Source: an uncultured Thermoplasmata archaeon
GTDB lineage: Archaea > Thermoplasmatota > Thermoplasmata > Lutacidiplasmatales > UBA184
Direction of reading: 5' to 3'
Assembly: GCA_963749205.1 (NCBI GenBank)
Contig: CAVVLW010000011.1
Span: 4,367 to 68,366, forward strand
Length of the DNA stretch: 64,000 bases
The notes beneath the pieces were generated by a model, which searched no databases, was not told the DNA's origin, and was given only the letters and a program-made list of their open reading frames with translations. Shown in pieces: positions 16,211-62,173 of the stretch. Made by a program: the position numbers and the translations under genes. The number at the start of each line of letters is the position of its first letter. The stretch's first letter is position 1.

Positions 16211-16318
16211 GGGCCGGGCAGAATAAAGCGTGGGGTTGGTCCGCCCTTCCCCCCCAGAGGCCTATGCCCGGTCCGGCGAGGGCTTAACCTCCGGGCCTGA
16301 TACCGTCCGGGTGGTTCC

Positions 16319-18899: not shown

Positions 18900-19207
18900 C
18901 ACGACCCCCTGCGCGGTCTGAAACCGCGAGTTTCAAGAGGGCCGAGATGCCGACATCCCTAGGTCCTGACGAGGGAACCCCAATCGGTGGGTCCTCGTCC
19001 CGAGGATCAGCCCCGTACCGACCTCCACAACTCGACGGAGAACCCATCCGACACCACCCTGCTGCAGGTCCCCAAGGTCGGTCCTGCTCCGCGCCGGGGG
19101 CCGCGGTACACGCTGAAGCATCTGAATCTCCTCACAATCAGGCCCTCGGCCTTCGACCGGATTTATCCACCACGCGCGACCGCACGCCCCGCCGTGAGAT
19201 CGACCGT

Positions 19208-20102: not shown

Positions 20103-20556
20103 GGCGAAAGAGTCCTCCGGAAGCGCACCCTGGGTAACGAGCGGGGTCGGGAGTCCGCTTCCCCCATGCCGTGAGGGGATTGGGGGGAGTGATATCCGCC
20201 TTTCGAACGGTCGAATCTCCCAACCCCAAGATCCCCCGTCCCTCGGCATGCCGGGACCCTTCCACATTCGTCATCACGGTGAGCATCTGACCGAGAGGGG
20301 ACGCACGAGTTCCCCGTGAAATTGATCGGCGGGGTGAATCAGTCCAGTCCGTCTCCGGGCGACGCGTCCCGGGCGGATTCCGCCGTCATCCTCTCCTCAA
20401 GGACGCTGCGGACCACGATCATCCCGGAGAATGGCATCGGGCGGCAGCCCGTGTGATGAGTGCATTACGATCGGCAGGGCTCGAACGATACACCCCCAGC
20501 GGGTGCCGTTCCGGGCCCCGCCACCTTTTCCTCCTTCCGGTGTTCCCGCACCAACA

Positions 20557-22648: not shown

Positions 22649-25352
22649 CTTCTCGACGAGCGGCGAGCTCGAGCGGATGGTCGAAGAAGGACGGGATCAC
22701 CGGGGTAACGATCAATCCGACGATCTTCGAGAAGGCGATCGCAGGAAGCCATGATTATGACGACGCGTTGAAAGATCTCCTCGACCCACGAACCCCACCT
22801 CGGTCCGGCCGAGCTCTATGAGCGGCTGGCGGTGGAGGATGTCCGTCCGCGCGGCGGACGTCCTGCGGCCGGTGTTCGACCGCACCGAGGGCAAGGACGG
22901 TTTCGTCAGCCTCGAGGTCGCTCCCGGCCTCGCCCACGATACTGCGGGCACTGTCGCCGAGGCGCGCCGGCTCTGGGCTGAGGTCGATCGGCCCAACCTG
23001 CTGATCAAGGTCCCGGGAACGCCCGAAGGGGTCCCAGCGATCGAGGAGTTGCTCTCCGAAGGGATCAACGTCAATGTGACCCTTCTGTTCTCCCTCTCTC
23101 AGTACGAGGCCGTCGCCCAGGCGTACCTGCGTGGGGTCGCGCGGGCCCGGGACCCGGCGCGGGTCGCGTCGGTCGCGTCCGTCTTCGTCAGCCGGATCGA
23201 CACCGCCGTGGACCGCGCCCTCGACGCCGCGAACGTGGCGACGGCTACCGCCCTCAAGGGAACGGTCGCCCTCGCCAACTGTCGCGTGATCTATGCGCGA
23301 TTCCAGGAGATCTTTCAAGGGCCGCTCGTTCGCCACTCCGAGTGCCCGGGGAGCGCGGCCTCAACGTGTGCTCTGGGCCAGCACGAGCACGAAGGACCCC
23401 CACTACCGCGACACGCTCTACGTCGAGGAGCTCATCGGACCCGAGACCGTCGACACGATCCCTCCCGCGACTCTTGCCGCGTTCGAGGACCACGGAGTCG
23501 TCCGTGGGGACACGGTGACCCAAGGGATCGCGCAGTCGCTCGAACAGCTCGTCCATGTGGCCGCGGTCGGGGTCAATCTCGCCCAGATCACCGAGGACCT
23601 GCAGACCGAGGGGGTCGGGCTGTTCGCGGACTCGTACGCCCTTCTGCTCCGAACCCTCGCGAGTAAGAAGGAAGCGACTTCTCGCGGGAAACCTCGACCC
23701 CGAATCCTGGAACCTCGGTAGCAGATAGCGGCCGGGTCGAGGCGGTTGAGGCAAGCTGGCAGGCGGCGCGGACCGCCGAGCGATTCTGGAAACTGGATGC
23801 GACCCTCTGGCCCGCTGCCCCCCGGAGCGACGTCGTCTCTCGCATGGGGTGGCTTCAGCTCCCCGAACTGATGCACGACCAGCTTCCCCGGCTCGAGCAC
23901 TTTCGCGGAAGAGGTCCGTTCCGAGGGATTCCGCCACGCCGTGGTTCTGGGGATGGGTGGCTCGAGCCTCGCTCCCGACGTCCTACGCGGGATATTTGGC
24001 AGCCGTCCGGGGTATCCCGAGCTGCTCGTTCTCGATAGCACTCATCCCGGACGCGATCGCCGCGGTCCATCGGAGTATCGACCCGGCGCACACCCTCTTC
24101 CTGGTCTCGAGCAAGTCGGGCACGACCACCGAGCCGCTCGCGTTCTACCGGGTACTTCTCGGAGACAGTCCGCGCGAGCGGCATCGCGCCGGGACGTTGT
24201 TTCGTCGGCGGTCACGGACCCAGGTACTCCGCTCGAGAAGCTCGCTCACGACGAAGGGTTTCGCGCAGTCTTCCTCGCCGTCCCGACGGTCGGGCGGAGG
24301 TACTCTGCGCTCACGATGTTCGGCCTCGTCCCCGCGGCAGCTCATCGGGTTCGACGTGCGTCTGCTCCTCGACCGCGCGTGGACGATGGCCGAAGGCGTG
24401 CGCGCCCTCGGTGCCGGTCGATGAAAATCCTGGGCTATCGCTCGGCGCGGTCCTCGGCGAACTCGCTACCCACGGCAGAGACAAGCTCACGTTCTACGCG
24501 GGGAAGAGCTTCGCCCCGTTCCCGGTCTGGGTCGAGCAATTGGTCGCCGAGAGCACTGGCAAGATCGGCAAGGGGATCGTGCCGGTCGTCGACGAGCCGC
24601 GGGTCGCTCTCGAGCACTACGGGGCGGACCGACTGTTCGTGGAGATCCAGGAAACCGGCCACCTCGACGGTCCGCTCGCGACGCACACGAGTCGACTCGA
24701 GGCTGCGGGTTTTCCGGTGGTGCGCATCCGGGCGCCGGACCGGCTCGCCGTCGGCGAGGAATTCTTCCGCTGGGAGATGGCCGTGGCGAGTGCCGGGATC
24801 GTCCTCGGGATCAACCCGTACGACCAGCCCGATGTCGAGTTCGCCAAGGAGCTCGCTCGCAAGGCGATGGCGCAGCCGTCCGGCGCCACGGGAGCGGCCG
24901 ATGTGGTGACGGTTCGAATCGATAGCGGGGCAGACTTCCACGCGGCCGTCCGGGAATGGCTCGATTCGGCCCGCCCCGGGGATTACGTCGGGATCCAGGC
25001 CTATCTGGCGCCCACCACCGAGACCTCGAGCGCCCTCGATCGGGTGCGCCGCCGACTCCTCGAGCTTCTGAACGTCGCGACGACGCTGGGCTACGGTCCC
25101 CGCTTTCTCCATTCCACCGGGCAGCTGCACAAGGGCGGTCCGAACACCGGGCTCTTCCTCCAGCTGATCGACGCACCCCAGCACGACCTCTCGGTGCCAG
25201 GAGCCGGGTACACGTTCGGGGAGCTCATACGGGCCCAATCGCTCGGGGACTACCAGGCGCTCCGTCAGAAGCAGCGCCGGATCCTTAGAGTGGACCTCGG
25301 GTCCGACGTCCGCGGCGGCCTTCATCATCTCATCGAGGTGCTGCGTGCCTGA
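22545..25352 (+). CDS. tal-pgi: probable bifunctional transaldolase / glucose-6-phosphate isomerase (Tal-PGI fusion type); several frame changes, including an in-frame TAG near 23719 that may be an artefact
   Basis: Tal part: ...[33 protein letters not shown]..., ...[66 protein letters not shown]... PGI (SIS) part: ...[11 protein letters not shown]...GWLQLPELM...[22 protein letters not shown]...[22 protein letters not shown]... Total about 936 aa, the length of known Tal-PGI fusions. Confidence 0.75.
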
Positions 25353-25963
25353 GTGTCTCGCTCCTCCTGTGGGACGTCGGAGGAGTGCTGCTCTCGAACG
25401 GCTGGGACCGGACCGCCCGCGCAGCCGCGGCCGCTCGACTTCAACCTCGACGTCGGCGGAACTGGAACGACGACACCAACTGGTCGAGACGGCGTTCGAG
25501 ACCGGACGGCTCGATTGGGAACGGGTATCTCGCAGCGACCGTCTTCTATGCGCCCCGGTCGTTCACCTCGGACGCGTTCCGGAAGTTCATGCGGGAGCAG
25601 TCCCGAGGCAATACCCCGCTCTCGCGACTGCCCGAGCGCTCCGGAGCGAGGGAAGGTACGTGATGGCGGCGCTGAACAATGAATCCCGAGAGCTGAACGA
25701 GTACCGCATCCGGACCTTCGGACTCACCGAGGTGTTCCACGCGTTCTTCAGCTCGTGTTATACCGGCTACCGGAAGCCCGACCCCGCCGCCTACCGGTAC
25801 GCGCTCGACATCGCTGCAACGTACGCCCCCTGAGACCCTCTTCCTCGACGACCGGCCCGAGAACATCTCGGCCGCCGCCCGGCTCGGTCTTCGCACGCTC
25901 GAAGTGCGGGACCCCGAGCGACTTCGGGAAGAGCTGGCGCTCGCGGGCGTCACGTCGGGGTAG
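25353..25963 (+). CDS. HAD-superfamily phosphatase (DxGGVL subtype); several frame changes
   Basis: LLWDVGGVLLSNGWD (HAD motif I variant), ...YRKPDPAAYRYALDIA... (motif III region), ...LFLDDRPENI... (motif IV). Stop TAG 25961-25963. Confidence 0.55.
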
Positions 25964-25973
25964 GAGGAGAACG

Positions 25974-26883
25974 ATGGAACTGGGAATGGTCGGGCTCGGA
26001 AAAATGGGCGCGAACATGACGGTACGGTTGGTCGAGGGAGGACACCACGTGGTGGGCTACGCTCGGACGAAGGCCGTGGTCGACGCGGTCGTAGCGCAGG
26101 GGGCCTCCGGCGCGGACTCGCTCGCGAATCTCGTGCAGCAGCTCGAGCCCCCACGGGTCGTCTGGCTGATGATCCCGTCGGGCGACCCCGTCGACCAGAC
26201 GCTCGACCAGCTCCATCCGTTGCTCGCGCCCGGCGACCTCGTCGTGGACGGGGGAACTCCTACTACCGGGACACGCTCCGTCGATCCGCCCGGGTCACCG
26301 GTTGGGGCATTCCGGTACGTGGATGTCGGGTACGAGCGGAGGGATCTGGGGGCTCAAGGAAGGGTATTCGATGATGGTCGGCGGCGACGACGCCGATGTC
26401 GAGCGCGTTCGGCCGATCCTCGAGACGCTCGCGCCCGGCCCCAAGCTCGGGTGGGGCCACATGGGTCCCGTCGGCTCCGGTCATTTCGTCAAGATGGTCC
26501 ACAACGGGATCGAGTACGGAATGATGCAGGCGTACGCCGAAGGCTTTGCCGTGCTCCAGGGGAAGACGGAGTTCGCGTTGGACCTGCATCAGGTCGCGGA
26601 GGTCTGGAGGTACGGCAGCGTCATCCGGTCGTGGCTGCTCGAGCTGACCGAGGACGCGCTCGCCGAGAATCCGACGCTCGCCGGCATCGAACCGTGGGTC
26701 GCGGACTCCGGGGAGGGTCGATGGACGGTGACGGAGGCGATGGACCTCAACATCCCCGCCCCGGTGATCACGCTCGCCCTGCAAGCGCGGCTGCGATCGA
26801 GGGAGGCCGACCCGTTCACCGAGCGGCTCCTCGCAATGATGCGCAACAAGTTCGGCGGCCACGACGTGAAGCGGGAGAGCTAG
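25974..26883 (+). CDS. gnd: 6-phosphogluconate dehydrogenase, decarboxylating (short Gnd/YqeC-type); frame change near 26270-26300
   Basis: MELGMVGLGKMGANMTVRLVEGGHHVVGYAR... (NAD(P)-binding) then ...GIWGLKEGYSMMVGGDDADVERVRPILETLAP...HFVKMVHNGIEYGMMQAYAEGF... GGAGGAG box 25964-25970 precedes the ATG. Confidence 0.85.
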
Positions 26884-26885
26884 GC

Positions 26886-28344
26886 ATGGGGAGCCCCGGT
26901 CCCGAGCGGCACTTGTTCGTGGTGTTCGGCGCGACCGGGGACCTGATGCAGCGCAAGCTCCTTCCCGTGCTGTACCGACTGAACGCGAGGGGAAAGCTCC
27001 CGACCGGAACGGTCGTCCTCGGGGTCGCGCGCCGGCCGATGGACGACTCGGCCTTCCGTGGCATGGCCCTCGCGCTCGCTCACTGCGGAAAAGGTCGCAG
27101 AGCCCGGGCCGCTCCGCTCCTTCTGCGATGCGACTCTCTTCTACCAAGCGGTCGCGGACGAAACTGCGCCGAGCTTCGCGGGCCTGCGGCGACGGGTCGA
27201 ACAACTGGAGCAGGAGCACGGTCTGGTGGGAAATCGAATCTTTTACCTCGCGCTGCCCCTCGAAGCGTTCGCCCCCACCCTGGCCGGGCTGGGCGAAGCG
27301 GGGCTGAACGCCGGCCCCGGCTGGACCCGCGTCGTGATCGAGAAGCCGTTCGGGCGGGACCTCGCATCTGCCGAAGCACTGAACGGGCTCGTCCACCGGT
27401 ACTTCGAGGAGAAGCAGGTATTCCGGATCGACCACTATCTCGGCAAGGAGACCGTGCAGAATCTCCTGGTCTTCCGGTTTGCCAATATGTTCATCGAGTC
27501 GCTCTGGACGCGCGAACGGATCGACCACGTGACGATCACCGTCGCGGAGTCGCTCGGCGTGGAAGGGCGCGCCCGCTACTACGAAACGTCGGGGGCACTG
27601 CGTGACATGATCCAGAACCACGTGACGCAGGTCCTGACGCTCATCGCGATGGAGCCTCCCGCGACCCGGGACGAGGACTCGATCCGGAACGAGAAGGTCA
27701 AGGTGCTCCAAAGCATCGTCCGCTTCGGACCCGGTGACGTGGTTCGGGGCCAGTACACCTCGGGGAACATCGACGGAGCGCCGGTCTCGGGTTATCGGGA
27801 GGAACCCGGAGTCGCTTCCGAATCGGACACCGAGACGTTCGTTGCGCTCCGGTCTGAAAATCGCGAACTGGCGGTGGCAGGACGTCCCGTTCTTCCTGCG
27901 AACGGGCAAGCGACTCCCCGCGAAGTCAAGCTGGGTCGTGCTGACCTTTAAGGCCCCCCCGTGACGTTCTTTCAGACGGCCCAGGAGTACAACGCGAACC
28001 CGGACCGCATCTCGATCCTCATCCAGCCCGACGAGGGGTTCGAGCTCGCGTTCGAGGTGAAGGTGCCCGGCCGGGAGATGCGCCTGCAGACCCATCGGAT
28101 GAAGTTCAACTATGCCGAGGTGTTCGGCGAGCTTCCGGACGGGTACGAGACGCTCCTGATCGACGTGATGCTGGGGGACCCCACCCTCTTCGTCCGCGCC
28201 GACGAGGTAGAGGAGTCGTGGCGCCTCTACGAACCGCTGCTCCGGTCGCCTCCCCCGCTGAAGTTCTATCCTGCGGGTTCGTGGGGACCCGAGGAGGCTC
28301 AGACGCTCGTCCAGGGGTGGGGGCACCGTTGGTATTACGGTTAG
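26886..28344 (+). CDS. zwf: glucose-6-phosphate 1-dehydrogenase (canonical Zwf); frame changes near 27060 and 27900-27960
   Basis: [22 protein letters not shown] (N-terminal dinucleotide motif), EKPFGRDL and the strictly conserved RIDHYLGKE at 27424-27450; C-terminal domain in ORF 27961..28344. Confidence 0.9.
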
Positions 28345-29110
28345 ACCGTAGGGCGCTCGTCTTCCCGGATCTCGATACCGCCAGCGCGGCCCTCGCCCGT
28401 CATCTCGTCACCACCGCGATCGCCTCCGTGCGTGAGCGAGGCGGCTTCTCGCTCGTAATCTCGGGCGGACGCACCCCGCTCGGACTCTACCGGCGCCTCG
28501 GAGGAGCCGCCGGTCGCCGTTTTCCGTGGAAGTCGACCGACCTGTTCTTCGCGGACGAACGCTGTGTTCCATCGCGGAATCCCGAGAGCAATTTCGGCGT
28601 GGCGTGGGACACGTTCCTTTCCCGGGTGACGATCCCGCGCCACCGGATCCACCGACTGCGCGGGGAGCTGAAGCCTCCCTCGGAAGCCGCGGCGCGGTAC
28701 GCGCGCGCACTCGGGCATCTCGCGCTCCCGGGAAACTCGCTTCCTCCACGTTTCGACGTGGTCTTGCTGGGGATCGGTCCGGACGGTCACACCGCGTCCG
28801 TGTTCCCCGGGCAGTCCCGCGGCGCACGAGGAGCGGCGCGCCGTGGTCGCGGTGCCGCATTCGGGGTTGCGTCCGTTCGTCCCCCGGTTGACGTTGACGC
28901 CCCCGGCCCTCTCCTCGTCCCGAGAGGTCTGCTTCCTCGTCGCGGGAGCGGACAAGGCGGACGCGGTAGCCGGCGTCTTCGAACCGGTCCTGCGGGGGAC
29001 CTCGGCCTTCCGGCGAGCCTGTGCGGCCCCCGGGGCCCGCATTCTGGTTTCTGGATTCTGCGGCGGCGGACGGGCTTCCGTCCCCGAGGGCGGGTCGCCG
29101 CTCCAACTAG
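28329..29110 (+). CDS. pgl: 6-phosphogluconolactonase (Pgl/DevB); frame changes near 28830 and 28990
   Basis: ...FSLVISGGRTPLGLYRRL...DLFFADERCVP...FDVVLLGIGPDGHTASVFPG..., then ...VCFLVAGADKADAVAGVFEP..., and in the +1 frame ...LPASLVRPPGPAFWFLDSAAADGL*. Probable TTG start overlapping the zwf stop. Confidence 0.8.
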
Positions 29111-29121
29111 CTCCGGGCCCG

Positions 29122-29819
29122 TCACACGGGTCGGGCCGGAGTGACGTCGGCCCAGAGCCGAACCCCGCCGACCATCGCGTTCCGATTATCGCCGCGCTCC
29201 GCCCGGGGCGGGAGCTCTCGGAGCTTGCGAACGTTCCCCCTCCCAGCACCACGTAGTCGGGTTCGAGCGCGTCCGAGAGGGTCTTCGTGACGGCGAAGAC
29301 CTCCTTCTGCCACTTCCTCCGACCGAGGCGCTCCAGACCATCCTCGCCAACAAAATCCTCGTACGTCTTTCCTTTCTTGTACGGGAGATGGGCGAGTTCC
29401 ATGGGCTCGAGCTTCCCCTCGACGATCATCGCGCTTCCTCGGCCGGTCCCGAGTCCGAGGAAGAGCATCCGCCCGCCGTGGTAGCTCCCGAGGGCCTGCA
29501 TGGCCGCGTCGTTCACGACCCGGGTCGGGCGACGGAACGCGTTCTCGAACCCGAACCCCACCCACCCTTTCCCGAGGTTCGGGGGTTCGGCCACGGGCCG
29601 GCCGTGGACGACAAGCCCGGGGTAGCCGACCGACACCAGGTCGTACCGTTCTCCTCTCAATCGTCGAGCCAGCCTCTTCACCATCTCACCGGGTTCAAAG
29701 TTCGGGCCGGAAGGGATCTTGATTTCTCTCCCCCCGTCCGAGAAACCCGCCTTCACGTGGCTCCCACCGACGTCGAGGACGAGAATTCGCTTCGGTCGTG
29801 GCGGACGTTTCGACCCCAT
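29122..29819 (-). CDS. glk: ROK-family glucokinase (polyphosphate/ATP glucokinase-like); frame change near 29170-29200
   Basis: RILVLDVGGSHVKAGF... (ROK N-terminal ATPase motif), ...RVVNDAAMQALGSYHGGRMLFLGLGTGRGSAMIV..., C-terminal ...GGGNVRKLRELPP...RGDNRNAMVGGVRLW in another frame. Only the first 230 codons of ORF 28341..29819 are real. Confidence 0.7.
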
Positions 29820-29926
29820 CGGGGGCCGCCAACCGCCAGAGGCGGTTAAAACTCCCGGTGGTCAGCGGGTCAACGGTGTCTCCGCCGAATCGTGGACCCG
29901 CTGGCCGCTGAAGGTGACCTACGACG

Positions 29927-30583
29927 CTAAGAGAGAACTCGGAAGGCGATATTGAAGTTGCCCAGCTTCATCGCCACTCGCACCCAGAGAGGTACGAGGG
30001 CCTCGAGCCACCGGGCCCCTTCGATGCCTCCAAGGTCCACCGACCCGGACCATCCGAACTCCCGAAGGATGCGGTCGACTTCGGCCTTGGCCCCGTCGTC
30101 GTTTCCCGCGATGATCATGGTGGGGCTGGCCCCGTGGATGGCCGGATGGGTCATCACATTCGCCGGAACGATGTTGAAGCACTTCACGACGCGCGACCCT
30201 GGCAGCTTTCGCTGGTGACGCTCGCCGAGGGAGTCGGTCATGCCTACGAAAAGACCGGGGGGCGGTCCGTGGGAGAAGTCGAGGGCGTTCGTCGCGTCGA
30301 TGAGGACCTTCCCGTCAAAGTGTTCGGGCCCGGCGAGCGCGATGACCTCTTCACTTGCGGTACCCAAGCAGGCGAGGACGACGACCTCCCCATGCTGCGC
30401 GGCCTCGGCGAACGTCCCCGTCGAGACCTTTCCCGGAGTAGCCTTCTTCCACGCTACGAGCTCCGGCTTGTCCGGTGTCTTCGACCCGATCTGGACATCG
30501 TGCCCGTGCTCGGCGAAGCCCGTCCCGAGCGTTTGACCGACCACGCCACTACCGAGGATTCCGACGCGCATGACCGCCGGCAC
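29927..30583 (-). CDS. NADP oxidoreductase, coenzyme-F420-dependent family (NpdG/ProC-like dinucleotide-binding protein)
   Basis: MRVGILGSGVVGQTLGTGFAEHGHDVQIGSKTPDKPE... (Rossmann fold), about 215 aa, PF03807-like. Confidence 0.6.
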   Translation of the reverse strand: MPAVMRVGILGSGVVGQTLGTGFAEHGHDVQIGSKTPDKPELVAWKKATPGKVSTGTFAEAAQHGEVVVLACLGTASEEVIALAGPEHFDGKVLIDATNALDFSHGPPPGLFVGMTDSLGERHQRKLPGSRVVKCFNIVPANVMTHPAIHGASPTMIIAGNDDGAKAEVDRILREFGWSGSVDLGGIEGARWLEALVPLWVRVAMKLGNFNIAFRVLS

Positions 30584-40813: not shown

Positions 40814-41825
40814 CTAGGCCCCGAGCCTGGCGCGGATCTCTGCGGCCGCGGTCTCCGGCGCGACCGGATTTACCGCGGTCCCCGCACCGAGCTCGAAGCC
40901 GTCGGCGCGAACGAGCCGCGGAGCGACCTCGACGTGCCAGTGGAACTCCGCCCCGGCGCCGGGTGCAGCCGCGAGGCCGTGGACGAACCAGTTGTAGGAC
41001 GCCTGTGGGTAGATCGCGTCGATCGCCCGGAGGACCGCCGGAAGCCGCTCGGCGAGCTGGTCGACCTCCGCGTCGGACGAGTCCGCGAAGCTGGTCGCAT
41101 GTCGCTTCGGTACCAACCAGACCTCGTAGGGGAATTCCGAGGCGAACGGGGCGAGGGTGGTGAACGCCCCGGCGTCCGAGACGATCCGCTCGTGGGCATC
41201 CCGCTCCGCGGCGACCATCGACTCGAGGAGGCATCCACCGGTCGCTCGGGATGCGTCCCGGCGAAATCCTTCCCGCTCCTCCTCGAACCTCGTCGGGACC
41301 TTCTCGGTCGCGACGAGCTGGGCGTGTGGGTGAGGGAGCGTTCCTCCGGATTCCGGCCCTCGGTTCTCGAACAACAGCACCGCACCGATGTCGGGCCGGG
41401 CGGTGAGGGACCGGACCCGCTCCCGAAAGAAGCGGAAGAGCGAGCGAAGCTGCTCGGGGGCGAGATAGGCCAGGTCGGGCGAGTGCTTCGGACCCGCGAC
41501 GATCACTTCGTGGACGCCCGCGGCCGGGGCCTGCTCGAAGAGAGGAGAGATTGGAGGGCGATCGGCGATCGACCTCGGCGATACCGTCGGAAACCGGTTG
41601 GGGATCGCCCGAACGGTCCACCCGGGTCCGTTGGGCGGGCTCCGGGCACCCCGAACGGCCGCGATCTCGAGGGGAGTGCTTCCCTCGTGACCCTCGCAGA
41701 ACGGGCAGTCCTCCTCAGCGGAACGAGGGGGAGGCGGGGCCGAGTAGTCGTTCGGCCGGGCGAGACCGGCCCTCGGCAACGATCCGCCAGTGCCCTGTGA
41801 GCGGGTCCTTCCGGAATTCGGACAT
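40814..41825 (-). CDS. galT: galactose-1-phosphate uridylyltransferase-like HIT-family nucleotidyltransferase (GalT family); frame change near 41780
   Basis: MSEFRKDPLTGHWRIVAEGR... (other frame) then ...CPFCEGHE... zinc site, ...HPHAQL (HxHxQ active site). 321+ aa. Confidence 0.7.
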
Positions 41826-52431: not shown

Positions 52432-52968
52432 CTACGCCTCGTCTTCGGGAAAGGACTCGTCCGGCGGGGCGGTCAGCGCCGCGCGCAGGGGCACCGGCCT
52501 TCGGTAAGGCGCCGGGGCAGATTCGTAGGCCGCCCGCGGCGTCTCCACCACCCGCAGGGTCGTCTCGCTTCCGTTCCCGTCGTAGGCCCTCCACGCGCCC
52601 CGTCCGTACGGGGCTCCGAGGATCAGGTGCCGCCGACCCCAGCTGCGGAAGAGCCGGAGGTCCGCGTCCGACGGGCGGAGCGCGCCCGAGGGGTGGGAGT
52701 GCACGGTGCCGGCGACCGAGAGGTCGGCGTGGAGCATCCATAGCTGGAAGTTGGCGTGGCGACGGCCGGCGGTGGTACCAGGGAGCAGCAACAACTCGCT
52801 GATGACCCCCGGCGGGTCGGCCCGCAGCACCCCCCCGAACTCATTCGGGAGGGCGGACCGTGCGCTCGCGAGCGCGCTCTCGAGGGCCCGGCGAGTGATC
52901 GCGGTCGGGGTGTCTCCGAGGCGGGGCCCGCCAGGGGGGCGCTTACGTTGGGGACGGAAGATCGGCAA
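52432..52968 (-). CDS. JAMM/MPN+ domain metalloprotein (Mov34 family)
   Basis: JAMM motif E...HSHPSGALRPSDADL (HxHx7Sx2D), 178 aa. Confidence 0.7.
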   Translation of the reverse strand: MPIFRPQRKRPPGGPRLGDTPTAITRRALESALASARSALPNEFGGVLRADPPGVISELLLLPGTTAGRRHANFQLWMLHADLSVAGTVHSHPSGALRPSDADLRLFRSWGRRHLILGAPYGRGAWRAYDGNGSETTLRVVETPRAAYESAPAPYRRPVPLRAALTAPPDESFPEDEA

Positions 52969-53821
52969 TCGACGGCCCCTCCTCGGCGAACTCCTCGGAC
53001 CACGGCAGGATCTTCTTCCCTCGAAGCCGCTGGAAGAACCGGGACCCGAATCGCACGAGGACCGCGCGTCGGGGAGAGCGATAGATGGTGACGGGCTCGG
53101 AGGGCGAGAGCCGGTACTCCGTCTCGCCGTCCACGACCACGACGGCGCCGGGCTTTTCCTCGACCGGACGCAAGCGCACGGTCCGCATCGGCTCGAGGAC
53201 GAGCGCGCGGGGGTCGGTACGGAACGGCGCGATCGCCGCGAGGACGAGGGCGTCGATCGAGCTATCGACGATCGGACCGCGGGAGCTCAGGGAGTAGGCG
53301 GTCGAGCCGGTGGGGCTCGCGACGATGAGACCGTCGGCGCGCAGTCGTCCCGCGACGTGGCCATCGAACGCGAGCTCGAAGAGACCCATCTTCGCGACCG
53401 CGGCCGAGTGAACCACGAACTCGTTCGTCGCGTCCGGGAGCGGCTGGTTCCCGATCTCGGCGGCGAGCTTCATCCGCTCCTCGAGGAAGTAGAATCCCTG
53501 AAGAAGGCGCTCGATCGCCCACTCGAACTCCTTGGGGTGGCGCGTCTCCACTTCCGCGAGGACCCCCACCGTGCCGGCGTTGATCGGCAAGAGTGGAGCG
53601 TTCGAGCGCCGGAGCGTGTGCAGGAACGTTCCGTCCCCTCCGATCGCGACGAGCACGTCGCATCCGATCCGCTCGAGCGGGGCGTGAGGGCGCGAGGGGT
53701 CGGCCCGCGCGACCTCGTCGCTCAGGAGGACTTCGGCGCGGTCGCCGACCAGCCGGAGGAGCTCGGAGGCGAGGTCGAGCGCCTTCGGCTTGTCGGGATG
53801 GGCGGTGAGGCCGATCTTCAG
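52943..53821 (-). CDS. nadK: NAD(+) kinase
   Basis: GGDGT motif (VLVAIGGDGTFL), NE/D short motif, ...DGLIVASPTGSTAYSLS... Probable TTG start (MKIGLTAHPDKP). The start overlaps the stop of the upstream IMPase gene (TTGA). Confidence 0.85.
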   Translation of the reverse strand: MKIGLTAHPDKPKALDLASELLRLVGDRAEVLLSDEVARADPSRPHAPLERIGCDVLVAIGGDGTFLHTLRRSNAPLLPINAGTVGVLAEVETRHPKEFEWAIERLLQGFYFLEERMKLAAEIGNQPLPDATNEFVVHSAAVAKMGLFELAFDGHVAGRLRADGLIVASPTGSTAYSLSSRGPIVDSSIDALVLAAIAPFRTDPRALVLEPMRTVRLRPVEEKPGAVVVVDGETEYRLSPSEPVTIYRSPRRAVLVRFGSRFFQRLRGKKILPWSEEFAEEGPSIADLPSPT

Positions 53822-54627
53822 AGATATCCCTCCTCCGCGGCCTTCCGGAACCCTGGGTCTCCCCACGCGAGGACGCTCGTACGCCGCTCGAGCGTGAGGG
53901 GGAATGCGTCAAGGGATTTCCCGCGGGCGTCGGTGACCCCTCCGCCGGCCTCCTCCACGATCCGATACGCTGCGGCGATGTCGGTCGAGCGGAGATTTCG
54001 GGCGTCGGGGTCGTTCTCGAAAAAGAACCCGTCGGCGCCCCCCTGGGCCACCATCAAGAGCTCCTGGGAGGCGCAACCGAGCGAGCGCACGCGCCGCGCC
54101 TTGCCGGCGAGACGGACCGACCGTGCCGTCGCGTTGCGCCCGAGGTTCACGAACACCGTTTCCGTCTTCGGGTTCCATGGGCGGGTCTGGATCGGCCGTC
54201 CGTCCCGGAACGCTCCGGTCCCGCGGCTCGCCCACCAGGTCGTCCCGTGATGGAGGTCGCGGACCAGGCCCACGTCGATCCCCGCAAGATCCCCTCGGCC
54301 GAGAGCGAGGGAGACGGTGAAGAACGGCAGGTTCCGAAGCGCGTTGTGGCTCCCGTCGATCGGGTCGACGACGAGGGTTCGATCGCCCCCGCGCGAGACG
54401 TGGCCGATCTCCTCGGAGAGCAGATCCCAGTCGACCCCTTCCGCGTCCAGCACGCGGAGTATCTCCCCCTCGGCGAGTCGGTCCAGCTCCTCGGTCGGGG
54501 TCCCGTCCGCGCCCATCGCGACCACGTCGGCGCGGTGCGGCGAACTGCGGGCGTCCCGCACGACCCGGTGGACCGCGACGCTCACCCGGTAGAGCACCTC
54601 GAGCTCCGGCGGCGCCCCTCCGACCAC
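53818..54627 (-). CDS. suhB: inositol-monophosphatase-family phosphatase (IMPase/FBPase/NADP-phosphatase type)
   Basis: ...VVDPIDGSHNALRNLPFFTVSLAL... (DPIDGT motif), ...WASRGTGAF..., C-terminal ...WGDPGF... typical of archaeal IMPase/FBPase. Confidence 0.8.
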   Translation of the reverse strand: MVGGAPPELEVLYRVSVAVHRVVRDARSSPHRADVVAMGADGTPTEELDRLAEGEILRVLDAEGVDWDLLSEEIGHVSRGGDRTLVVDPIDGSHNALRNLPFFTVSLALGRGDLAGIDVGLVRDLHHGTTWWASRGTGAFRDGRPIQTRPWNPKTETVFVNLGRNATARSVRLAGKARRVRSLGCASQELLMVAQGGADGFFFENDPDARNLRSTDIAAAYRIVEEAGGGVTDARGKSLDAFPLTLERRTSVLAWGDPGFRKAAEEGYL

Positions 54628-57148: not shown

Positions 57149-57183
57149 CCCGCCCCCGCTCCCTCGCTCCCCGGAGATTGGTC

Positions 57184-58566
57184 GTGTCTCGCTGGATTTC
57201 GAACGAGCCCGGCGAGGAGACCGCACTGCTCGAGGCCCTCGGCATCTCCTCGGTGGACCAACTGTTCACGGACGTCCCCAAGAAGGCCCGGATCGGACGC
57301 ATGGGCGTGGGACCGGGCCACGACGAACCCGAGGTCGTTCGCCTGGTCGACCAGATCCTGGAGCGGAACAAGCCCCTCGCCAAGTTCGCGAGCTTTCTCG
57401 GGGGACGCGTCTCGACGCGGTACACCCCGGCCGCCGTGGACGCGATCGTTTCCCGCAGCGAATTCTACACGGCCTACACGCCCTACCAGCCCGAGGCGAG
57501 CCAGGGGATGCTGCGGGTCCTGTTCGAGTTCCAGAGCCTCTGGGTCGAACTTACCGGCCTCGATGTCGCGAACGCCTCCCTCTACGACGGCGCCACCGCG
57601 GCCGGTGAGGCGCTCTTGTTCAGCCACCGGGTCCACGAGGGGCAACGGTTCCTCGTGCCCGCCAGCCTTCCGTGGGAGGAGAAGAGCGTCCTCCGGAACT
57701 ACGCGAGCGGACCCCGACTGACCGTGGAGGAGGTCCCGTACGACGATCGTACCGGACGTCTCGACGTCGATTTCATCCGGCGCGCCGTGGCGGCGGGCGA
57801 CGTCTTCGGGGTGCTCGCCGACGTGCCGAACGGTTTCGGCCACGTCGACGAAGGGGTCGCCGACCTGAAAGGGATCCTCGGAGAGATTCCCCTCGTCGTG
57901 GAAGCCGACCCGCTCGCCCTATCGGTCCTCGAACCTCCGGGAAGCTACGGCGCCGACGTCGTAATCGGCGAGGGGCAGGGTTTCGGGATCGCTCCCTCGT
58001 TTGGAGGGCCACTCCTCGGGTTGTTTGCATGCCGGTCCGAGCACGTGCGCTCTGCGCCGGGGCGGATCGTTGGGGCGACCCACGACGTGGATGGGCGCCC
58101 CGCGTTCACGCTCACGTTGCAGACGCGAGAGCAGCACATCCGCCGCTCGCGGGCGACGTCCAACATCTGCACGAACCAGTCCCTGATGGCCCTCGCCTTC
58201 GTCGTCTACGCGAGCCTCGTTGGACCCCGGGGCCTAGCAGAGCTTCAGGCGCGAGTCGCGGAGAAGGCACGAACGCTCGCGAGCGCCCTCGGCGGGATCG
58301 AGGGGATCCAGGCCCCCCGGTTCGACTCGCCGTACCTGGGGGAGTTCACGATCGAACTGACGCGCGGAACCGCCGCCGAATTCCTCGACCGCCTCCGCCG
58401 GAAGAAGATCCTGGGCGGTCACCCGCTCGCCGACCCACGTCCCGGTGCCGAGGGGACTCCGGAGCGGCTCCTCGTGGCCGCGTCCGACGCGACGACCGAG
58501 AAGGAGATCGAGAAATACACCCGGGCCGCCCGCGCCGCGATCGATGCGGTGGGGAGGAGCGCGTGA
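57184..58566 (+). CDS. gcvPA: glycine dehydrogenase (decarboxylating) subunit 1
   Basis: VSRWISNEPGEETALLEALGISSVDQLFTDVP...YTPYQPEASQG... (split-type P-protein N-terminal half). GTG start; the alternative is TTG 57178. Confidence 0.85.
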   Translation: MSRWISNEPGEETALLEALGISSVDQLFTDVPKKARIGRMGVGPGHDEPEVVRLVDQILERNKPLAKFASFLGGRVSTRYTPAAVDAIVSRSEFYTAYTPYQPEASQGMLRVLFEFQSLWVELTGLDVANASLYDGATAAGEALLFSHRVHEGQRFLVPASLPWEEKSVLRNYASGPRLTVEEVPYDDRTGRLDVDFIRRAVAAGDVFGVLADVPNGFGHVDEGVADLKGILGEIPLVVEADPLALSVLEPPGSYGADVVIGEGQGFGIAPSFGGPLLGLFACRSEHVRSAPGRIVGATHDVDGRPAFTLTLQTREQHIRRSRATSNICTNQSLMALAFVVYASLVGPRGLAELQARVAEKARTLASALGGIEGIQAPRFDSPYLGEFTIELTRGTAAEFLDRLRRKKILGGHPLADPRPGAEGTPERLLVAASDATTEKEIEKYTRAARAAIDAVGRSA

Positions 58567-60050
58567 CGTTCCGTCAGGCCCGGTGGGACGAGCCCTCCAT
58601 TTGGGACCTCTCCCCGCCCCGGGACGGGGTCGCCCCTCCCACGATCGCCGGGATTCCCGAGCGCCTCCGTCGCAAGGAGGCCGTTCGGTGGCCGGAGCTC
58701 TCCGAGCTCGAAGTGGTCCGCCACTACACTCGGCTCTCTCAGATGAACTTCGGGATCGACACGGCCCCCTACCCCCTGGGGTCGTGTACGATGAAGTACA
58801 ACCCGAAGGTCTCGGAACTGCTCGCCCGCCGACCGGGGGCCGCGAACCTCCACCCCTACCAACCGGAGGAGACGGTCCAGGGGGCGCTCGAGCTTCTCTG
58901 GCGACTCGAGCGGATCCTCACGAAAGTCACCGGACTCCCCGAGGTCTCTCTCCAGGCCGGCGCGGGGGCGCACGGGGAGTGGGCCGCCCTATTGATGGTC
59001 CGAGCCTTCCTCCGTGACCGGGGAGAGATCGACCGGCGGACCGAGGTGCTCCTTCCCGACACGGCCCACGGAACCAATCCGGCGTCGGCGATGATGGCCG
59101 GCTTCACGACCCGCGAGATCCGGTCCAAGGAAGGGTGCGTCGACCTCGATGCCCTTCGTGCGGCCGTCAGCGACCGGACCGCCTGTTTCATGCTCACCAA
59201 CCCGAACACGGCCGGGTTGTTCGAGAGCGACATCCTCGAGATCGCGGAGATCGTCCACGGAGCGGGGGGGACGCTCTATTACGATGGAGCAAACCTGAAC
59301 GCGATCCTCGGGATCACGCACCCGGGACGGATGGGGTTCGACGTCGCGCACCTGAACCTCCACAAGACGTTCGCGACGCCCCACGGGGGCGGGGGCCCGG
59401 GCGCGGGGGTGCTGGGAGCGAGCGAGGCGCTCGCGCCGTACCTTCCCGTCCCCCGGGTGGTCAAGAACGGGAGGAAGTTCCGTCTCGATTACGACCGACC
59501 GAAGTCGATCGGCAAGATCAAGACGGCCTACGGAAATTTCGGGCTCGACGTCCGGGCCTACGTCTTCGCTCTCACGCACGGGGAGGAAGGCCTCAACCAC
59601 GTGGCCCGTCGGGCCGTGCTCAACTCGAACTACCTCGCCCTCCGAATGGGAAAGAGCCTGCCCCGACCATTCCGGGCGCTGGTGAAGCACGAGTTCTTGC
59701 TCTCCGGGGCCCCACTGAAGGTCCACGGGGTGCGGACCCTCGACCTCGCGAAACGTCTCCTCGACGAAGGGGTGCACGCCCCGACCGTCTACTTCCCGTC
59801 CCTCGTAGAGGAGTCATTGATGGTCGAGCTCCCCGAGACCGAGTCCAAGCGCGAGCTCGACAACTACGTCGCCGCGTTCGAGCGCGCGGTCTCCGACACT
59901 CCCGAGAACCTCCGGGCAGCGCCCCGTTGGCTCGCCGTCGGCCGGATCGACGAGGTGCAAGCCGCTCGCGAACCCCGCCTCTCCTGGAAGGACCTCCGCG
60001 CGGCGGGGGCAAAGGTTGAAACCCCGGGGCCGGTGGGTTCGGGGCGATGA
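58563..60050 (+). CDS. gcvPB: glycine dehydrogenase (decarboxylating) subunit 2
   Basis: ...LGSCTMKYNP..., PLP-lysine region ...AHLNLHKTFATPHGGGGPG...; GTGA overlap with the gcvPA stop. Confidence 0.9.
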   Translation: MTFRQARWDEPSIWDLSPPRDGVAPPTIAGIPERLRRKEAVRWPELSELEVVRHYTRLSQMNFGIDTAPYPLGSCTMKYNPKVSELLARRPGAANLHPYQPEETVQGALELLWRLERILTKVTGLPEVSLQAGAGAHGEWAALLMVRAFLRDRGEIDRRTEVLLPDTAHGTNPASAMMAGFTTREIRSKEGCVDLDALRAAVSDRTACFMLTNPNTAGLFESDILEIAEIVHGAGGTLYYDGANLNAILGITHPGRMGFDVAHLNLHKTFATPHGGGGPGAGVLGASEALAPYLPVPRVVKNGRKFRLDYDRPKSIGKIKTAYGNFGLDVRAYVFALTHGEEGLNHVARRAVLNSNYLALRMGKSLPRPFRALVKHEFLLSGAPLKVHGVRTLDLAKRLLDEGVHAPTVYFPSLVEESLMVELPETESKRELDNYVAAFERAVSDTPENLRAAPRWLAVGRIDEVQAAREPRLSWKDLRAAGAKVETPGPVGSGR

Positions 60051-61154
60051 AGCCCCGAGTCCTCAAGATCTTCGCGCAGCTCGACCCGAAACCGGAGGCG
60101 GTCCTCTTCTCGAACGCGATCGACCCGCACCTCGACCAGACGTTCTTCTACCTGTTCGACGTGCCCGCGGGCCTCTTCGAGGGGTCGATCGCGATCGGCC
60201 ACCCGGACGGGGAACTCGACGTCTTCTCTTCGCCGCTCGAGGCCGAGACCGCGCACGAGGCGGCGAAGCGCGACCCCCATGTGACCGTCCACGTCGTCGC
60301 GCGCGACGAGACGGCCGCCGCCGCCCGCAAGCTCCTCGGGCCGAGGACCACGCTCGGGCTCAACTACCGAGAATTGACCCACGAATGGTTCCTGCGCCTG
60401 GATTCGGCGTTCGGCGGACCGAAGTGGGTCGACTGCTCGAACGCAATCCGGCGCGCGCGCGTGACCAAGGATGCCAACGAGGTGGAACTCCTCCGGAAGG
60501 CAGGGGAGATCGGCTCGAAGGTCGGTCGAGGAGATCCCGGGGCTGCTCAAGGCCGGCATGTCCGAGCTCGAGCTCGCCGCGGAGATGGAGTACCGGATGA
60601 ACCGACACGGCGCGAGCGGGCGCTCGTTCGCCACGATCGTCGCGTTCGGTCCCCACAGCGCCGAGCCGCACTACGCGCCGGCCGAAACGAAACTGAAAGC
60701 GGGCGACTCGATCGTCTGCGACTTCGGCGCGTACTACCGGCGCTACGCGAGCGACATCACCCGCTCGTTCCATTTCGGGCGACGGGACGACGAGATGAAG
60801 AAGGTCCACGAGACCGTGCTCAAAGCCCAGCAGGCCGCCCTGGCGGTCGTTCGACCAGGAGTCCCTTCGAAGGAGGTCCACCTCGCCGCCGCGAAGGTGA
60901 TCGACGACTCTCCGTGGAAGGGCCGCCTGACCCATGGGGTCGGTCACTCCATCGGCCTGGTCGTACACGACGGATGGGCCTACGGGGCCACGGCCGAGGA
61001 TGCGCTGGAAGTGGGGATGGCGATCACGGTCGAACCCGGCATCTACCTGCCCGGCCACGGAGGGGTCCGGATCGAGGACGACATCGTCGTCACGAAGAAC
61101 GGATACGAGTTCCTTACCACCGCTCCGCGAGAGTACCTCGAGGTCCCGGCGTGA
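60047..61154 (+). CDS. pepP: Xaa-Pro aminopeptidase/prolidase (M24B); frame change near 60520
   Basis: Creatinase-type N-domain, then the pita-bread core with metal ligands ...DFGAYYRRYASDITRSF..., ...HGVGHSIGLVVHD..., ...VEPGIY..., ...IEDDIVVT. ATGA overlap with the gcvPB stop. Confidence 0.8.
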
Positions 61155-62173
61155 GGTTCGGCGTCCTCACGGGCGGGGGAGACTGTCCGGGGCTCAACCC
61201 GGCAATCCGCGCCATCGTCCAGCGGTCCGCCCTCTTCGGCCACGAGACCGTGGGATTCCTCGACGGCTGGAAAGGACTCCGCGACGACCTCTCGCGTCCG
61301 CTCGACCTCGCGAGCGTTCACGGCCTCCTCGCACGCGGTGGAACGATCCTCGGAACTTCCCGGACGAACGCGTTCGCCAAAGAGGCCGACGCGGCGCGGG
61401 TCGTCGCGACGCTCGCCCGGCACAGGATCGACGCGCTGGTCGCGGTCGGGGGAGACGATACCCTCTCTGCGGCGCGAGAACTCCATCGACGGGGAGGAAA
61501 GGTTGTCGGGGTCCCGAAAACGATGGATAACGATGTGGCGGGGACCGACTGGACGTTCGGCTTCCATTCGGCGGTCGCGGTCTCGGTCGATGCGCTCGAA
61601 CGGTTGCGGGACACGGCTGACAGCCACCGCCGGGCGATCGTGCTCGAAGTGATGGGTCGCCACGCCGGATGGGTCGCCCTCGCGACCGGCCTCGCAGGCG
61701 GGGCGGACGCGACCCTGCTTCCCGAGGAGCCGTTCGATGAGGAACTCCTGTTCGCGAAGGTCCGCCGGGCCATCGCCGCCCGCGGATACGCGCTTGTCGT
61801 AACGAGCGAAGGGATCGAGCTCGGCCCTCGGAAGGGTGCCCCCGGAGCGAAGGACGAGTTCGGTCACGAACTCCTGCGGGAGCGGGAGGTCGGAGCGGAG
61901 CTCGCCCGGCGCATCCAGGAGCGGACCGGTGTGGAGTCTCGCAGTGCCCAGATCGGTCACATCCAACGTGGAGGGTCGCCCGAACTCTTCGACCGGATCC
62001 TCGCCACCCGGCTCGGCGCGGGCGCGGTGGACCTCGCGCTGGCCGGCCGGTTCGGGGAGGTGGCGGTGCTCCGGGGACCGTCGGTGGTCGGCATTCCCCT
62101 CGACGACGCGCTCGGGACCACGAAGACCGTCTCGGCGGACTGGCTCGACCTGTTGCACACTTTCGACGCCTAG
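61151..62173 (+). CDS. pfk: 6-phosphofructokinase, PfkA family, with PPi-type specificity residues
   Basis: GVLTGGGDCPGLNPAIRAIV, VGGDDT (61448-61462), PKTMDNDV (61514-61534), MGRHAG, ...HIQRGG... GTGA overlap with the pepP stop. Confidence 0.85.
   Translation: MRFGVLTGGGDCPGLNPAIRAIVQRSALFGHETVGFLDGWKGLRDDLSRPLDLASVHGLLARGGTILGTSRTNAFAKEADAARVVATLARHRIDALVAVGGDDTLSAARELHRRGGKVVGVPKTMDNDVAGTDWTFGFHSAVAVSVDALERLRDTADSHRRAIVLEVMGRHAGWVALATGLAGGADATLLPEEPFDEELLFAKVRRAIAARGYALVVTSEGIELGPRKGAPGAKDEFGHELLREREVGAELARRIQERTGVESRSAQIGHIQRGGSPELFDRILATRLGAGAVDLALAGRFGEVAVLRGPSVVGIPLDDALGTTKTVSADWLDLLHTFDA

Follow-up and report, generated by a model that had tools for sequence, protein, structure and literature searches.

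Which phosphoryl donor is used by the 6-phosphofructokinase (PFK) that is encoded close to the end of a 64-kb stretch of DNA from an uncultured Thermoplasmata archaeon (contig CAVVLW010000011.1, the full length of which we refer to as the window) is the question raised by this locus. Close homologues of the gene, here termed pfp, are named after ATP-dependent enzymes in databases, whereas a first-pass annotation had proposed its dependence on inorganic pyrophosphate (PPi), based on the presence of Asp and Lys at the positions equivalent to Gly104 and Gly124 of E. coli PfkA. The properties of the sequence described in the following suggest that the gene product is probably a non-allosteric PPi-dependent fructose-6-phosphate 1-phosphotransferase (Pfp, EC 2.7.1.90). 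The gene and the residues in the vicinity of its predicted donor site are located as follows:

61151..62173, + strand: pfp (pfk), 340-residue PfkA-family 6-phosphofructokinase, predicted to be PPi-dependent (identified from the open reading frame, homology and Pfam)
61268..61270, + strand: Trp40, equivalent to E. coli Tyr41; Trp in both PPi-dependent references, Tyr or Phe in the ATP-dependent references
61358..61369, + strand: Ser70-Arg71-Thr72-Asn73 (SRTN); Arg71 is equivalent to E. coli Arg72 and Thr72 to Phe73
61448..61462, + strand: GGDDT motif (Gly100 to Thr104); Asp103 (codon GAT, 61457-61459) is equivalent to E. coli Gly104 at the alpha-phosphate site of ATP
61469..61471, + strand: Ala107, equivalent to E. 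coli Gly108 in the adenine cleft; a residue other than Gly, as in all tabulated PPi-dependent PFKs
61514..61534, + strand: PKTMDND motif (Pro122 to Asp128); Lys123 (codon AAA, 61517-61519) is equivalent to E. coli Gly124

The gene is intact and its product is a member of the PfkA family, as illustrated by a match to PF00365 (315.7 bits, E = 3.4e-94) that extends over residues 2-295 and profile positions 1-276 of 277. Its coding region starts with a GTG at 61151, which overlaps the TGA stop codon of the upstream gene (GTGA, in the context gcGTGAgg), and it is terminated by the stop codon at 62171-62173. The frame stays open in the 5' direction as far as 60047, which is a consequence of the scarcity of stop codons in DNA with 68% GC. 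The position 61151 is the true start of the gene, since 120 of the 120 closest homologues are 340 amino acids long and begin with the N-terminus MRFGVLTGGGD. The integrity of pfp is worth stating because both adjacent genes, encoding an M24 peptidase and MtnA, are frameshifted in the window (the former by an insertion at 60530, the latter affected at 62384, 62961 and 63041). Compared with another assembly of this population (L001), the window differs between 52230 and 64000 (11.8 kb) by 32 single-base insertions or deletions (indels) and 24 substitutions, and L001 contains split versions of the thermosome and mtnA genes. This pattern is the signature of long-read consensus errors, and apparent pseudogenes in the window call for caution. 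None of the 32 indels is located within pfp, whose protein is identical in both assemblies and to the database protein P0001.

For the comparison of donor-site residues, we have used a MAFFT alignment in the numbering of E. coli PfkA, whose sequence is identical to PDB entry 1PFK over 320 residues and whose literature numbering omits the initiator Met. The alignment includes six reference enzymes with sequences confirmed by exact look-up or against the PDB, namely the PPi-dependent Pfp of A. methanolica (Q59126) and T. tenax (G4RK16) and the ATP-dependent M. tuberculosis PfkA, S. coelicolor PfkA2, G. stearothermophilus PFK and E. coli PfkA. In this alignment, the Asp of the GGDDT and the Lys of the PKTMDND motif coincide exactly with Gly104 and Gly124, and within the latter motif Thr124, Asp126 and Asp128 are the equivalents of Thr125, the catalytic Asp127 and Asp129. 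Position 104 is occupied by Asp in the query and in the enzymes from A. methanolica and T. tenax and by Gly in all four ATP-dependent references, and it is thus shared only with PPi-dependent proteins. In contrast, Lys124 is present in all four short references of group III irrespective of whether they use PPi or ATP. Since the ATP-dependent M. tuberculosis and S. coelicolor enzymes of the subfamily carry this residue too, it is required in known PPi-dependent enzymes without being diagnostic for them and was rejected as a donor marker, so that from the pair of substitutions initially regarded as an established predictor of PPi dependence, it is Asp104 that separates the donors.

The assignment by residue 104 is accompanied by features at positions 41 and 73, both of which, based on the 1PFK structure, we take to line the nucleotide site of E. 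coli PfkA. At position 73, the query and both PPi-dependent references contain a Thr, whereas Phe, Cys, Val or Leu are found in the ATP-dependent references. In a set of 88 cluster representatives (50% identity) that were retrieved together with the query and carry Lys124, Trp41 is found in 28 of the 30 sequences with Asp104 compared to 14 of the 58 with Gly104, and Thr73 in 23/30 compared to 4/58 (Fisher P of 2e-10 and 3e-11 for the respective association with Asp104, in statistics that ignore shared ancestry). The described residues are also strongly conserved. Both GGDDT and VPKTMDND are found in all of the 120 closest metagenomic homologues, Asp104 and Lys124 coincide in 80 of 80 related genome loci (29/29 from Thermoplasmata and 51/51 from bacteria) and the full set of Trp41, Thr73 and Asn74 is retained in 75 of these 80.

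These relationships agree with the published motifs, where a study in the Journal of Biological Chemistry (JBC 2024) has assigned GGDGSxxG to ATP, GGDGSxxI to ADP and GG(D/E)D(S/T)xxx to PPi and has placed the ATP-dependent S. coelicolor enzyme within a short PPi cluster. Similarly, a 2023 alignment of purified enzymes contains Gly104 in all ATP-dependent and Asp in PPi-dependent PFKs, whereas the P(G/K)T motif alone was described as no indicator of the donor in a 2025 PFK review, which reports Lys124 also in the ATP-dependent T. brucei enzyme and a residue larger than Gly at position 108 of all PPi-dependent enzymes.

In contrast to the donor site, the region that interacts with the sugar resembles its counterpart in E. 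coli PfkA, where all eleven catalytic and F6P-binding positions examined are conserved. Conservation was seen for Asp127, Asp129 and Asp103 (the latter two involved in Mg2+ binding), Thr125, Arg162, Met169-Gly170-Arg171, Glu222, Arg243, His249 and Arg252 (E. coli numbering), including the Arg residues contacting the substrate that were to be inspected according to the first-pass annotation. Fructose-6-phosphate (F6P) is therefore the expected sugar substrate. This conservation does not extend to the effector site for ADP and phosphoenolpyruvate, where the residues at positions 25, 54, 187, 211 and 213-215 are not conserved, with Gln, Leu, Asp and Arg found at positions 25, 54, 187 and 213, and where only Arg21 and Arg154 are kept. 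Since most of the effector-site residues are replaced, we predict the enzyme to be non-allosteric, and a lack of allostery is typical of PPi-dependent PFKs.

The overall architecture predicted with AlphaFold2 (pLDDT 93.9, pTM 0.90) displays the standard PFK fold, and all top matches in a Foldseek search are PFKs (TM 0.84-0.95). The Bacillus and E. coli enzymes rank first (TM 0.89-0.95), ahead of the crystal structures of the Ca. Prometheoarchaeum PPi-dependent PFK (TMq 0.85). To judge from sequence, pfp lies outside the group-I ATP-dependent PFKs and belongs to the 'mixed-substrate group III' of the PfkA family, a branch of short proteins (about 37 kDa). The best NCBIfam model for the query is TIGR02483 (PFK_mixed, 365.3 bits), whereas its score of 264.9 bits for the group I equivalog TIGR02482 (PFKA_ATP) is below the cut-off of 371.35, and instead of the Gly104, Gly108 and Gly124 that characterize group I (GGDGSxxG) it contains Asp, Ala and Lys. 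In a neighbour-joining (NJ) tree of 114 sequences, comprising the query, the six references and representatives of 50% clusters from an exhaustive HMMER search, the group of E. coli and Bacillus is split from all other sequences with 97% bootstrap, and the query is found together with the enzymes from A. methanolica, T. tenax, M. tuberculosis and S. coelicolor on the side of group III. The placement inside group I, which had been named at the outset as the outcome contradicting PPi dependence, is thus not what we find. The Thermoplasmata sequences form a monophyletic clade (99-100% bootstrap in the NJ trees), whose nearest 12-23 neighbours are all of the Asp104 type, and a second tree of the 80 genomic loci provides the same picture. 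The attachment point of this archaeal clade among bacterial PFKs with Asp104 shows bootstraps near zero, and the closest bacteria by identity (50-56%) are Caldisericota, Elusimicrobiota and Armatimonadota.

The strongest alternative is an ATP-dependent PFK that irreversibly catalyzes the committed step in a glycolysis obtained by lateral transfer, as implied by its naming by NCBI and by Sheridan et al. Close homologues are deposited as 'ATP-dependent 6-phosphofructokinase [Thermoplasmata archaeon]', which reflects the fact that they pass NF002872, a model named 'ATP-dependent 6-phosphofructokinase' that ranks second for the query (347 bits compared to a cut-off of 253). However, in a control scan the same model was passed by the proven PPi-dependent enzymes from A. 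methanolica (420 bits) and T. tenax (332 bits). The database name thus carries no information on the donor and was rejected as evidence for ATP dependence; the orthology group K21071, defined as 'ATP-dependent / diphosphate-dependent', equally covers both donors. The alternative draws further support from the presence of genuine ATP-dependent enzymes in the same subfamily at 45-48% identity (M. tuberculosis and S. coelicolor), which share Ala108 with the query, and from the lifestyle of the hosts, which are aerobes or facultative anaerobes equipped with pyruvate kinase. Conversely, it would have to account for an Asp at a position that is Gly in every characterized ATP-dependent PFK of the alignments and reviews and for Trp41 and Thr73, which match PPi-dependent enzymes, and, were the PFK irreversible, no fructose-1,6-bisphosphatase (FBPase) would be listed for the lineage. 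We thus regard ATP dependence as improbable.

There are several observations that weigh against PPi as donor. The Ala at position 108 is the smallest possible residue other than Gly, and M. tuberculosis and S. coelicolor have it in their ATP-dependent enzymes too. Most relatives with Asp104 contain a Val instead, although T. tenax Pfp shares the Ala. As a consequence, the adenine cleft of the query would be less obstructed than in typical PPi-dependent enzymes. The relationship between Asp104 and the donor is empirical, and the characterized enzymes behind it are at most about 51% identical to the query. Although TIGR02483 is its best model, the query scores below the cut-off of 430.55, as does T. 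tenax Pfp with 429.6 bits, in contrast to A. methanolica Pfp (501 bits), and the deep nodes of the NJ trees are unsupported. Finally, PPi-dependent PFKs are said to correlate with anaerobic lifestyles (2025 PFK review), whereas an aerobic or facultative lifestyle was attributed to the Lutacidiplasmatales (Sheridan et al. 2022, PMC9287336), and in the 64-kb window we have seen no PPi-related gene encoding a pyrophosphatase, an H+-pyrophosphatase or a pyruvate phosphate dikinase (PPDK). In light of the donor-site residues, we are nevertheless fairly confident that PPi is the physiological donor, in line with the core inference of the first-pass annotation, with which every sequence test that we ran agrees, even if its assignment stays a prediction.

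On this basis, a mechanism can be proposed in which F6P would be held by Arg162, Arg243, His249, Arg252, Glu222 and Met169-Gly170-Arg171 (E. coli numbering, from homology), with Asp126, the equivalent of E. coli Asp127, presumably acting as catalytic base. The carboxylate of Asp103 would occupy the pocket of the alpha-phosphate of ATP, thereby excluding nucleotides, and it would register PPi at the positions of the beta- and gamma-phosphates, whereas Lys123 (position 124) may stabilize the transferred phosphoryl group or the transition state. The same mechanism was shown structurally for the enzymes from B. burgdorferi and T. vaginalis, and it was confirmed for that of E. histolytica by a shift towards ATP in donor-site mutants.

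Two further explanations retain a non-nucleotide donor and concern either the sugar substrate or the length of the phosphate chain. Both refer to genes located about 32 kb away from pfp:

20431-22648: transketolase (tkt), pentose-phosphate cluster
22818-25352: bifunctional transaldolase/phosphoglucose isomerase (tal/pgi; NF007080, 350 bits)
25755-26883: 6-phosphogluconate dehydrogenase (gnd), pentose-phosphate cluster
27058-28344: glucose-6-phosphate dehydrogenase (zwf), pentose-phosphate cluster
about 29.2-29.9 kb, - strand: ROK-like gene with one frameshift near its 3' end; an intact identical version of 256 residues is P0387

In the first case, the enzyme would use PPi but its main or selected role, or one of two roles, would be to phosphorylate sedoheptulose-7-phosphate in a sedoheptulose-1,7-bisphosphate bypass of the pentose phosphate pathway. 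PPi-dependent PFKs of E. histolytica and cellulolytic clostridia phosphorylate this sugar and replace transaldolase according to the literature, and pentose-phosphate genes are found in the same window. However, these genes belong to a different operon, 32 kb away, and include a transaldolase (tal/pgi), which was also reconstructed in the ancestor of the Lutacidiplasmatales, and such a bypass would therefore not be needed. Since, moreover, the 6-phosphate of F6P is contacted by canonical residues throughout, we consider this role very unlikely.

We give equally little credence to the second case, where longer polyphosphates (polyP), such as tripolyphosphate, would be the preferred donor and, in conjunction with a polyP-dependent ROK glucokinase, would drive upper glycolysis. 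The PPi-dependent PFK of T. maritima reportedly accepts tripolyphosphate and polyphosphate (Ding, Ronimus and Morgan 2001), and the window contains a short ROK kinase, conserved in the lineage, which among the NCBIfam models matches that of polyphosphate-glucose phosphotransferase (PPGK) best. This match amounts to 60 bits compared to a cut-off of 250, the protein is short and does not contain the Cys motif, and ppgK (K00886) is absent from all Thermoplasmatota genomes and ancestors tabulated by Sheridan et al., where glk was called instead (PMC9287336). The gene resides 32 kb from pfp in a separate cluster of lower GC content together with tkt, tal/pgi, gnd and zwf, the two genes are not co-located in the related loci examined, we saw neither a polyphosphate kinase nor any further gene related to polyP in the window and nothing in the PFK sequence would separate the use of polyP from that of PPi. 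The economy of PPi and polyP envisaged in the first-pass annotation on the basis of this glucokinase-like gene is thus not supported, and the ROK kinase neither supports nor contradicts the use of PPi by the PFK. Homologues of the kinase are common at 64-84% identity and, since those named by source all originate from a 'Thermoplasmata archaeon', the gene is native to the lineage.

An ADP-dependent PFK-A, as in cyanobacteria and alphaproteobacteria, is effectively refuted by its motif, since although such enzymes are short and reportedly closer to short PPi-dependent than to classical ATP-dependent proteins (JBC 2024), and although sequences with Gly104, Ile108 and Lys124 exist among distant relatives, the query contains GGDDTLSA instead of GGDGSxxI and does not cluster with them. 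These relatives account for 20 of the 58 representatives with Gly104 (P0142-P0160, P0181, P0189, P0196 and others), and their Ile108 is a feature of the ADP-dependent motif.

The genomic context of pfp is defined by four genes on the same strand:

57180..58566 (start approximate), + strand: gcvPA, subunit 1 of glycine dehydrogenase; the conserved block begins with this gene
58563..60050, + strand: gcvPB, glycine dehydrogenase subunit 2, same operon
60047..61154, + strand: M24 Xaa-Pro-type peptidase (Creatinase_N and Peptidase_M24), split by the 1-nucleotide insertion at 60530; intact (368 residues) in L001
62182..63081, + strand: mtnA, S-methyl-5-thioribose-1-phosphate isomerase (IF-2B family), C-terminus frameshifted; intact (332 residues) in L005

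The order gcvPA-gcvPB-M24 peptidase-pfp-mtnA, with genes overlapping or nearly abutting on one strand, is found in 29 of 29 archaeal species and in none of the 51 bacterial loci. The gene pfp is thus fixed in this operon, presumably with translational coupling to the upstream gene. Scans for bacterial promoters and terminators around the operon yielded nothing above shuffled expectation, with bacterial models that are not applicable to archaea. For the downstream gene, we also considered the function of a ribose-1,5-bisphosphate isomerase, from which a role of the kinase in pentose-bisphosphate metabolism might have followed, but this candidate was rejected in light of its match to TIGR00512 (372 bits compared to a cut-off of 279), whereas the model of the former enzyme scores 172 bits at a cut-off of 314.

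In a scan with one genome per species, 29 species titled 'Thermoplasmata archaeon' were matched at 62-83% identity, including 'Candidatus Lutacidiplasma silvani' AcS3-62 (73-74%) and several long-read metagenome-assembled genomes (MAGs), whereas the next matches (48-57%) are bacterial and stem from Caldisericota/Cryosericum, Elusimicrobiota, Armatimonadota, Coprothermobacterota and others. The contig DAIDCO010000070.1, titled 'bacterium isolate clean3188', contains the complete gcvPA-gcvPB-M24-pfp-mtnA-uppS-MFS synteny at 63-83% identity, one short fragment of 97% aside, and almost certainly represents a mislabelled Lutacidiplasmatales-like archaeon.

The order Lutacidiplasmatales was described from acidic soils by Sheridan et al. 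(2022, PMC9287336), who found a pfk (K21071), labelled 'ATP-dependent', to be typical of this order and of the Thermoprofundales and inferred it to be gained twice independently from Bacteria (approximately unbiased test, P=0.02), with the acquisition dated to the last common ancestor of the Lutacidiplasmatales and the class-I aldolase fbaB gained alongside. In their Supplementary Data 8, K21071 is assigned to exactly two ancestral nodes, those of the Thermoprofundales and Lutacidiplasmatales. The pfp described here was accordingly most likely acquired from Bacteria at the base of the Lutacidiplasmatales, its host being a Lutacidiplasmatales-like soil member of the Thermoplasmata. In addition, pfp and mtnA are found in tandem, at a spacing of 5-6 nucleotides, in Lutacidiplasmatales-like genomes and in the Thermoplasmata MAG KM4338-14 of 41% GC, whose PFK is about 63% identical to bacterial sequences and about 54% to the Lutacidiplasmatales clade and is directly preceded by an IS6 transposase. 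Since mtnA adjoins pfp in none of the 51 bacterial loci, this pairing is difficult to reconcile with two entirely separate acquisitions from Bacteria; archaea may have exchanged the two genes as a pair, or an older acquisition may have occurred just once.

The first-pass annotation had called a PPi-dependent PFK unusual for archaea. This applies to characterized enzymes, for which reviews name T. tenax as the archaeal example and structures of the protein from Ca. Prometheoarchaeum have been deposited, but not to the gene, as K21071 was already known to be typical of Lutacidiplasmatales and Thermoprofundales. Within the literature available to us, we found no paper linking a PPi-dependent PFK with Thermoplasmatota. 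The gene has thus already been published in the lineage under a misleading name, and its assignment to PPi is a sensible re-annotation rather than the description of a new kind of enzyme.

The consequences of this re-annotation concern the direction of carbon flow. The PPi-dependent reaction is near equilibrium (2025 PFK review) and, in the reconstruction of Sheridan et al. (PMC9287336), the archaeal fructose-1,6-bisphosphate (FBP) aldolase/phosphatase (K01622) is absent from the ancestors of Lutacidiplasmatales, Thermoprofundales, Poseidoniales and SG8-5, and K03841 is absent everywhere in Supplementary Data 8. The same reconstruction assigns glk, pyruvate kinase, transketolase and transaldolase to the ancestor of the Lutacidiplasmatales. 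Since the lineage is thus credited with neither the bifunctional enzyme nor a class-I FBPase, the PFK most likely runs in both directions, producing FBP from F6P during glycolysis and regenerating F6P from FBP during gluconeogenesis. Whether it constitutes the main route from FBP to F6P appears to us nearly balanced, with a slight inclination towards the negative. The argument is based on an ancestral reconstruction that covers two FBPase families only, and the window contains a gene that could in principle supply such activity:

53818-54627, - strand: IMPase/FBPase-family gene, overlapping the NAD kinase gene
52943-53866, - strand: NAD kinase gene, adjoining the IMPase-family gene

The former is a candidate class-IV FBPase, which would weaken the case for PFK as the only route. 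The pair also recalls the archaeal pairing of NADP phosphatase and NAD kinase.

The main possibility opened by these considerations is an order of oxygen-respiring soil archaea that relies on one reversible PPi-dependent PFK instead of an FBPase. In its general form, where the whole of this common soil order, with its aerobic or facultative lifestyle, runs an acquired Embden-Meyerhof pathway on a single such enzyme replacing the FBP aldolase/phosphatase, we consider the proposal speculative and rather doubtful. Its bolder extension would add the short, conserved ROK kinase as a partner that depends on polyP, resulting in the ATP-free activation of hexoses. The use of one PPi-dependent PFK for both glycolysis and gluconeogenesis has not yet been demonstrated in any organism (2025 PFK review). 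If the PFK uses PPi as predicted, the glycolytic yield would rise by one ATP for each glucose, its PFK step would become reversible instead of being a 'committed' point of control and the missing FBPase would cease to be a gap in gluconeogenesis. Metabolic reconstructions of Lutacidiplasmatales would require correction, as would probably those of Thermoprofundales and other archaeal MAGs bearing K21071. The lineage would be the third in archaea with a PPi-dependent PFK and the first that is mesophilic and respires oxygen, which bears on the debated relationship between these enzymes and anaerobiosis. Finally, since NF002872 gives its name equally to proven PPi-dependent enzymes, donor assignments in MAG studies should make use of residue 104.

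The region 12900-30000 of the window differs in its GC content of about 63% from the 67-69% found elsewhere. It starts with an open reading frame of an rve-type integrase (12965-14512) and carries genes for an S-adenosylmethionine (SAM) methyltransferase, fumarase C, a MIP channel and the bacterial-type pentose-phosphate cluster described above, whose canonical oxidative branch with Zwf and Gnd is to our knowledge unusual for archaea. The split frames of most genes in this block are probably due to assembly indels. A 91-nucleotide tRNA-Gly(TCC) at 52589-52679 (- strand) was detected by ARAGORN and is not reported by the Rfam tRNA model at its gathering threshold; the call may correspond to an archaeal tRNA that contains an intron, or it may reflect the indel at 52645 by which the window differs from L001. 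A GalT-like gene of the galactose-1-phosphate uridylyltransferase family (HIT-type; 40814-41779, - strand) is a further gene of sugar-nucleotide metabolism in the window and is not linked to the PFK operon, and the remaining genes encode archaeal housekeeping proteins (TFB, a KaiC/RadA-like ATPase, DinB, TruD, a NOG1-type GTPase and a beta-CASP nuclease).

The described features place the protein in relation to several known systems. These include the allosteric ATP-dependent group I enzymes E. coli PfkA and G. stearothermophilus PFK, which are 41-42% identical to the query, superimpose with its model at TM 0.88-0.95 and share its catalytic and F6P-binding residues, but which contain Gly at positions 104, 108 and 124, possess an effector site that is intact and lack the insertion after residue 222. 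The protein of the Asgard archaeon Ca. Prometheoarchaeum syntrophicum (PDB 9CIR/9CIS/9CIT, 2025), which was deposited as PPi-dependent, is similar in structure (TMq 0.84-0.87, Foldseek E of about 1e-33) but, with 31-33% identity and 424 deposited residues (about 365-390 modelled per chain), belongs to another branch of PFK-A. The ATP-dependent enzymes S. coelicolor PfkA2 (PFKA2_STRCO) and M. tuberculosis PfkA (45-48% identity) resemble the query in length class, insertion, Lys124, Ala108 and, except for Lys243 in S. coelicolor, in their catalytic and F6P-binding residues, whereas they differ in Gly104 (GGEGT), Tyr or Phe at position 41 and Leu or Val at position 73, where the query matches PPi-dependent enzymes.

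Within its own lineage, the closest named counterpart is the pfk (K21071) of 'Candidatus Lutacidiplasma silvani' AcS3-62, with 73-74% identity and identical synteny, which Sheridan et al. (PMC9287336) have regarded as an ATP-dependent enzyme and solely as a glycolytic marker, leaving undiscussed the donor residues, the reversibility of the reaction and the coincident lack of an FBP aldolase/phosphatase. T. tenax Pfp, as the first characterized archaeal PPi-dependent PFK, originates from a hyperthermophilic crenarchaeote instead of a mesophilic soil member of the Thermoplasmata. Its sequence is 43-44% identical and not a sister of the Thermoplasmata clade in the NJ trees, a position that would fit separate origins of the two proteins. 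At the same time, it is equally short (337 residues) and non-allosteric, it shares GGDDT, Ala108, PKT, Trp41 and Thr73-Asn74 and it similarly remains below the cut-off of TIGR02483. The closest characterized PPi-dependent enzyme is the short group III Pfp of A. methanolica, an actinobacterial protein which is found in another sub-clade that also holds ATP-dependent enzymes, which differs by GGEDT instead of GGDDT, Val108 instead of Ala and PKTIDND instead of PKTMDND and which, unlike the query, scores above the TIGR02483 cut-off. With 50-51% identity over the full length (341 compared to 340 residues), it shows the same ranking of NCBIfam models, with TIGR02483 followed by NF002872, and it shares with the query the insertion after E. 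coli residue 222, Trp41, Arg72-Thr73-Asn74, Asp104, Lys124 and all residues involved in catalysis and the binding of F6P.

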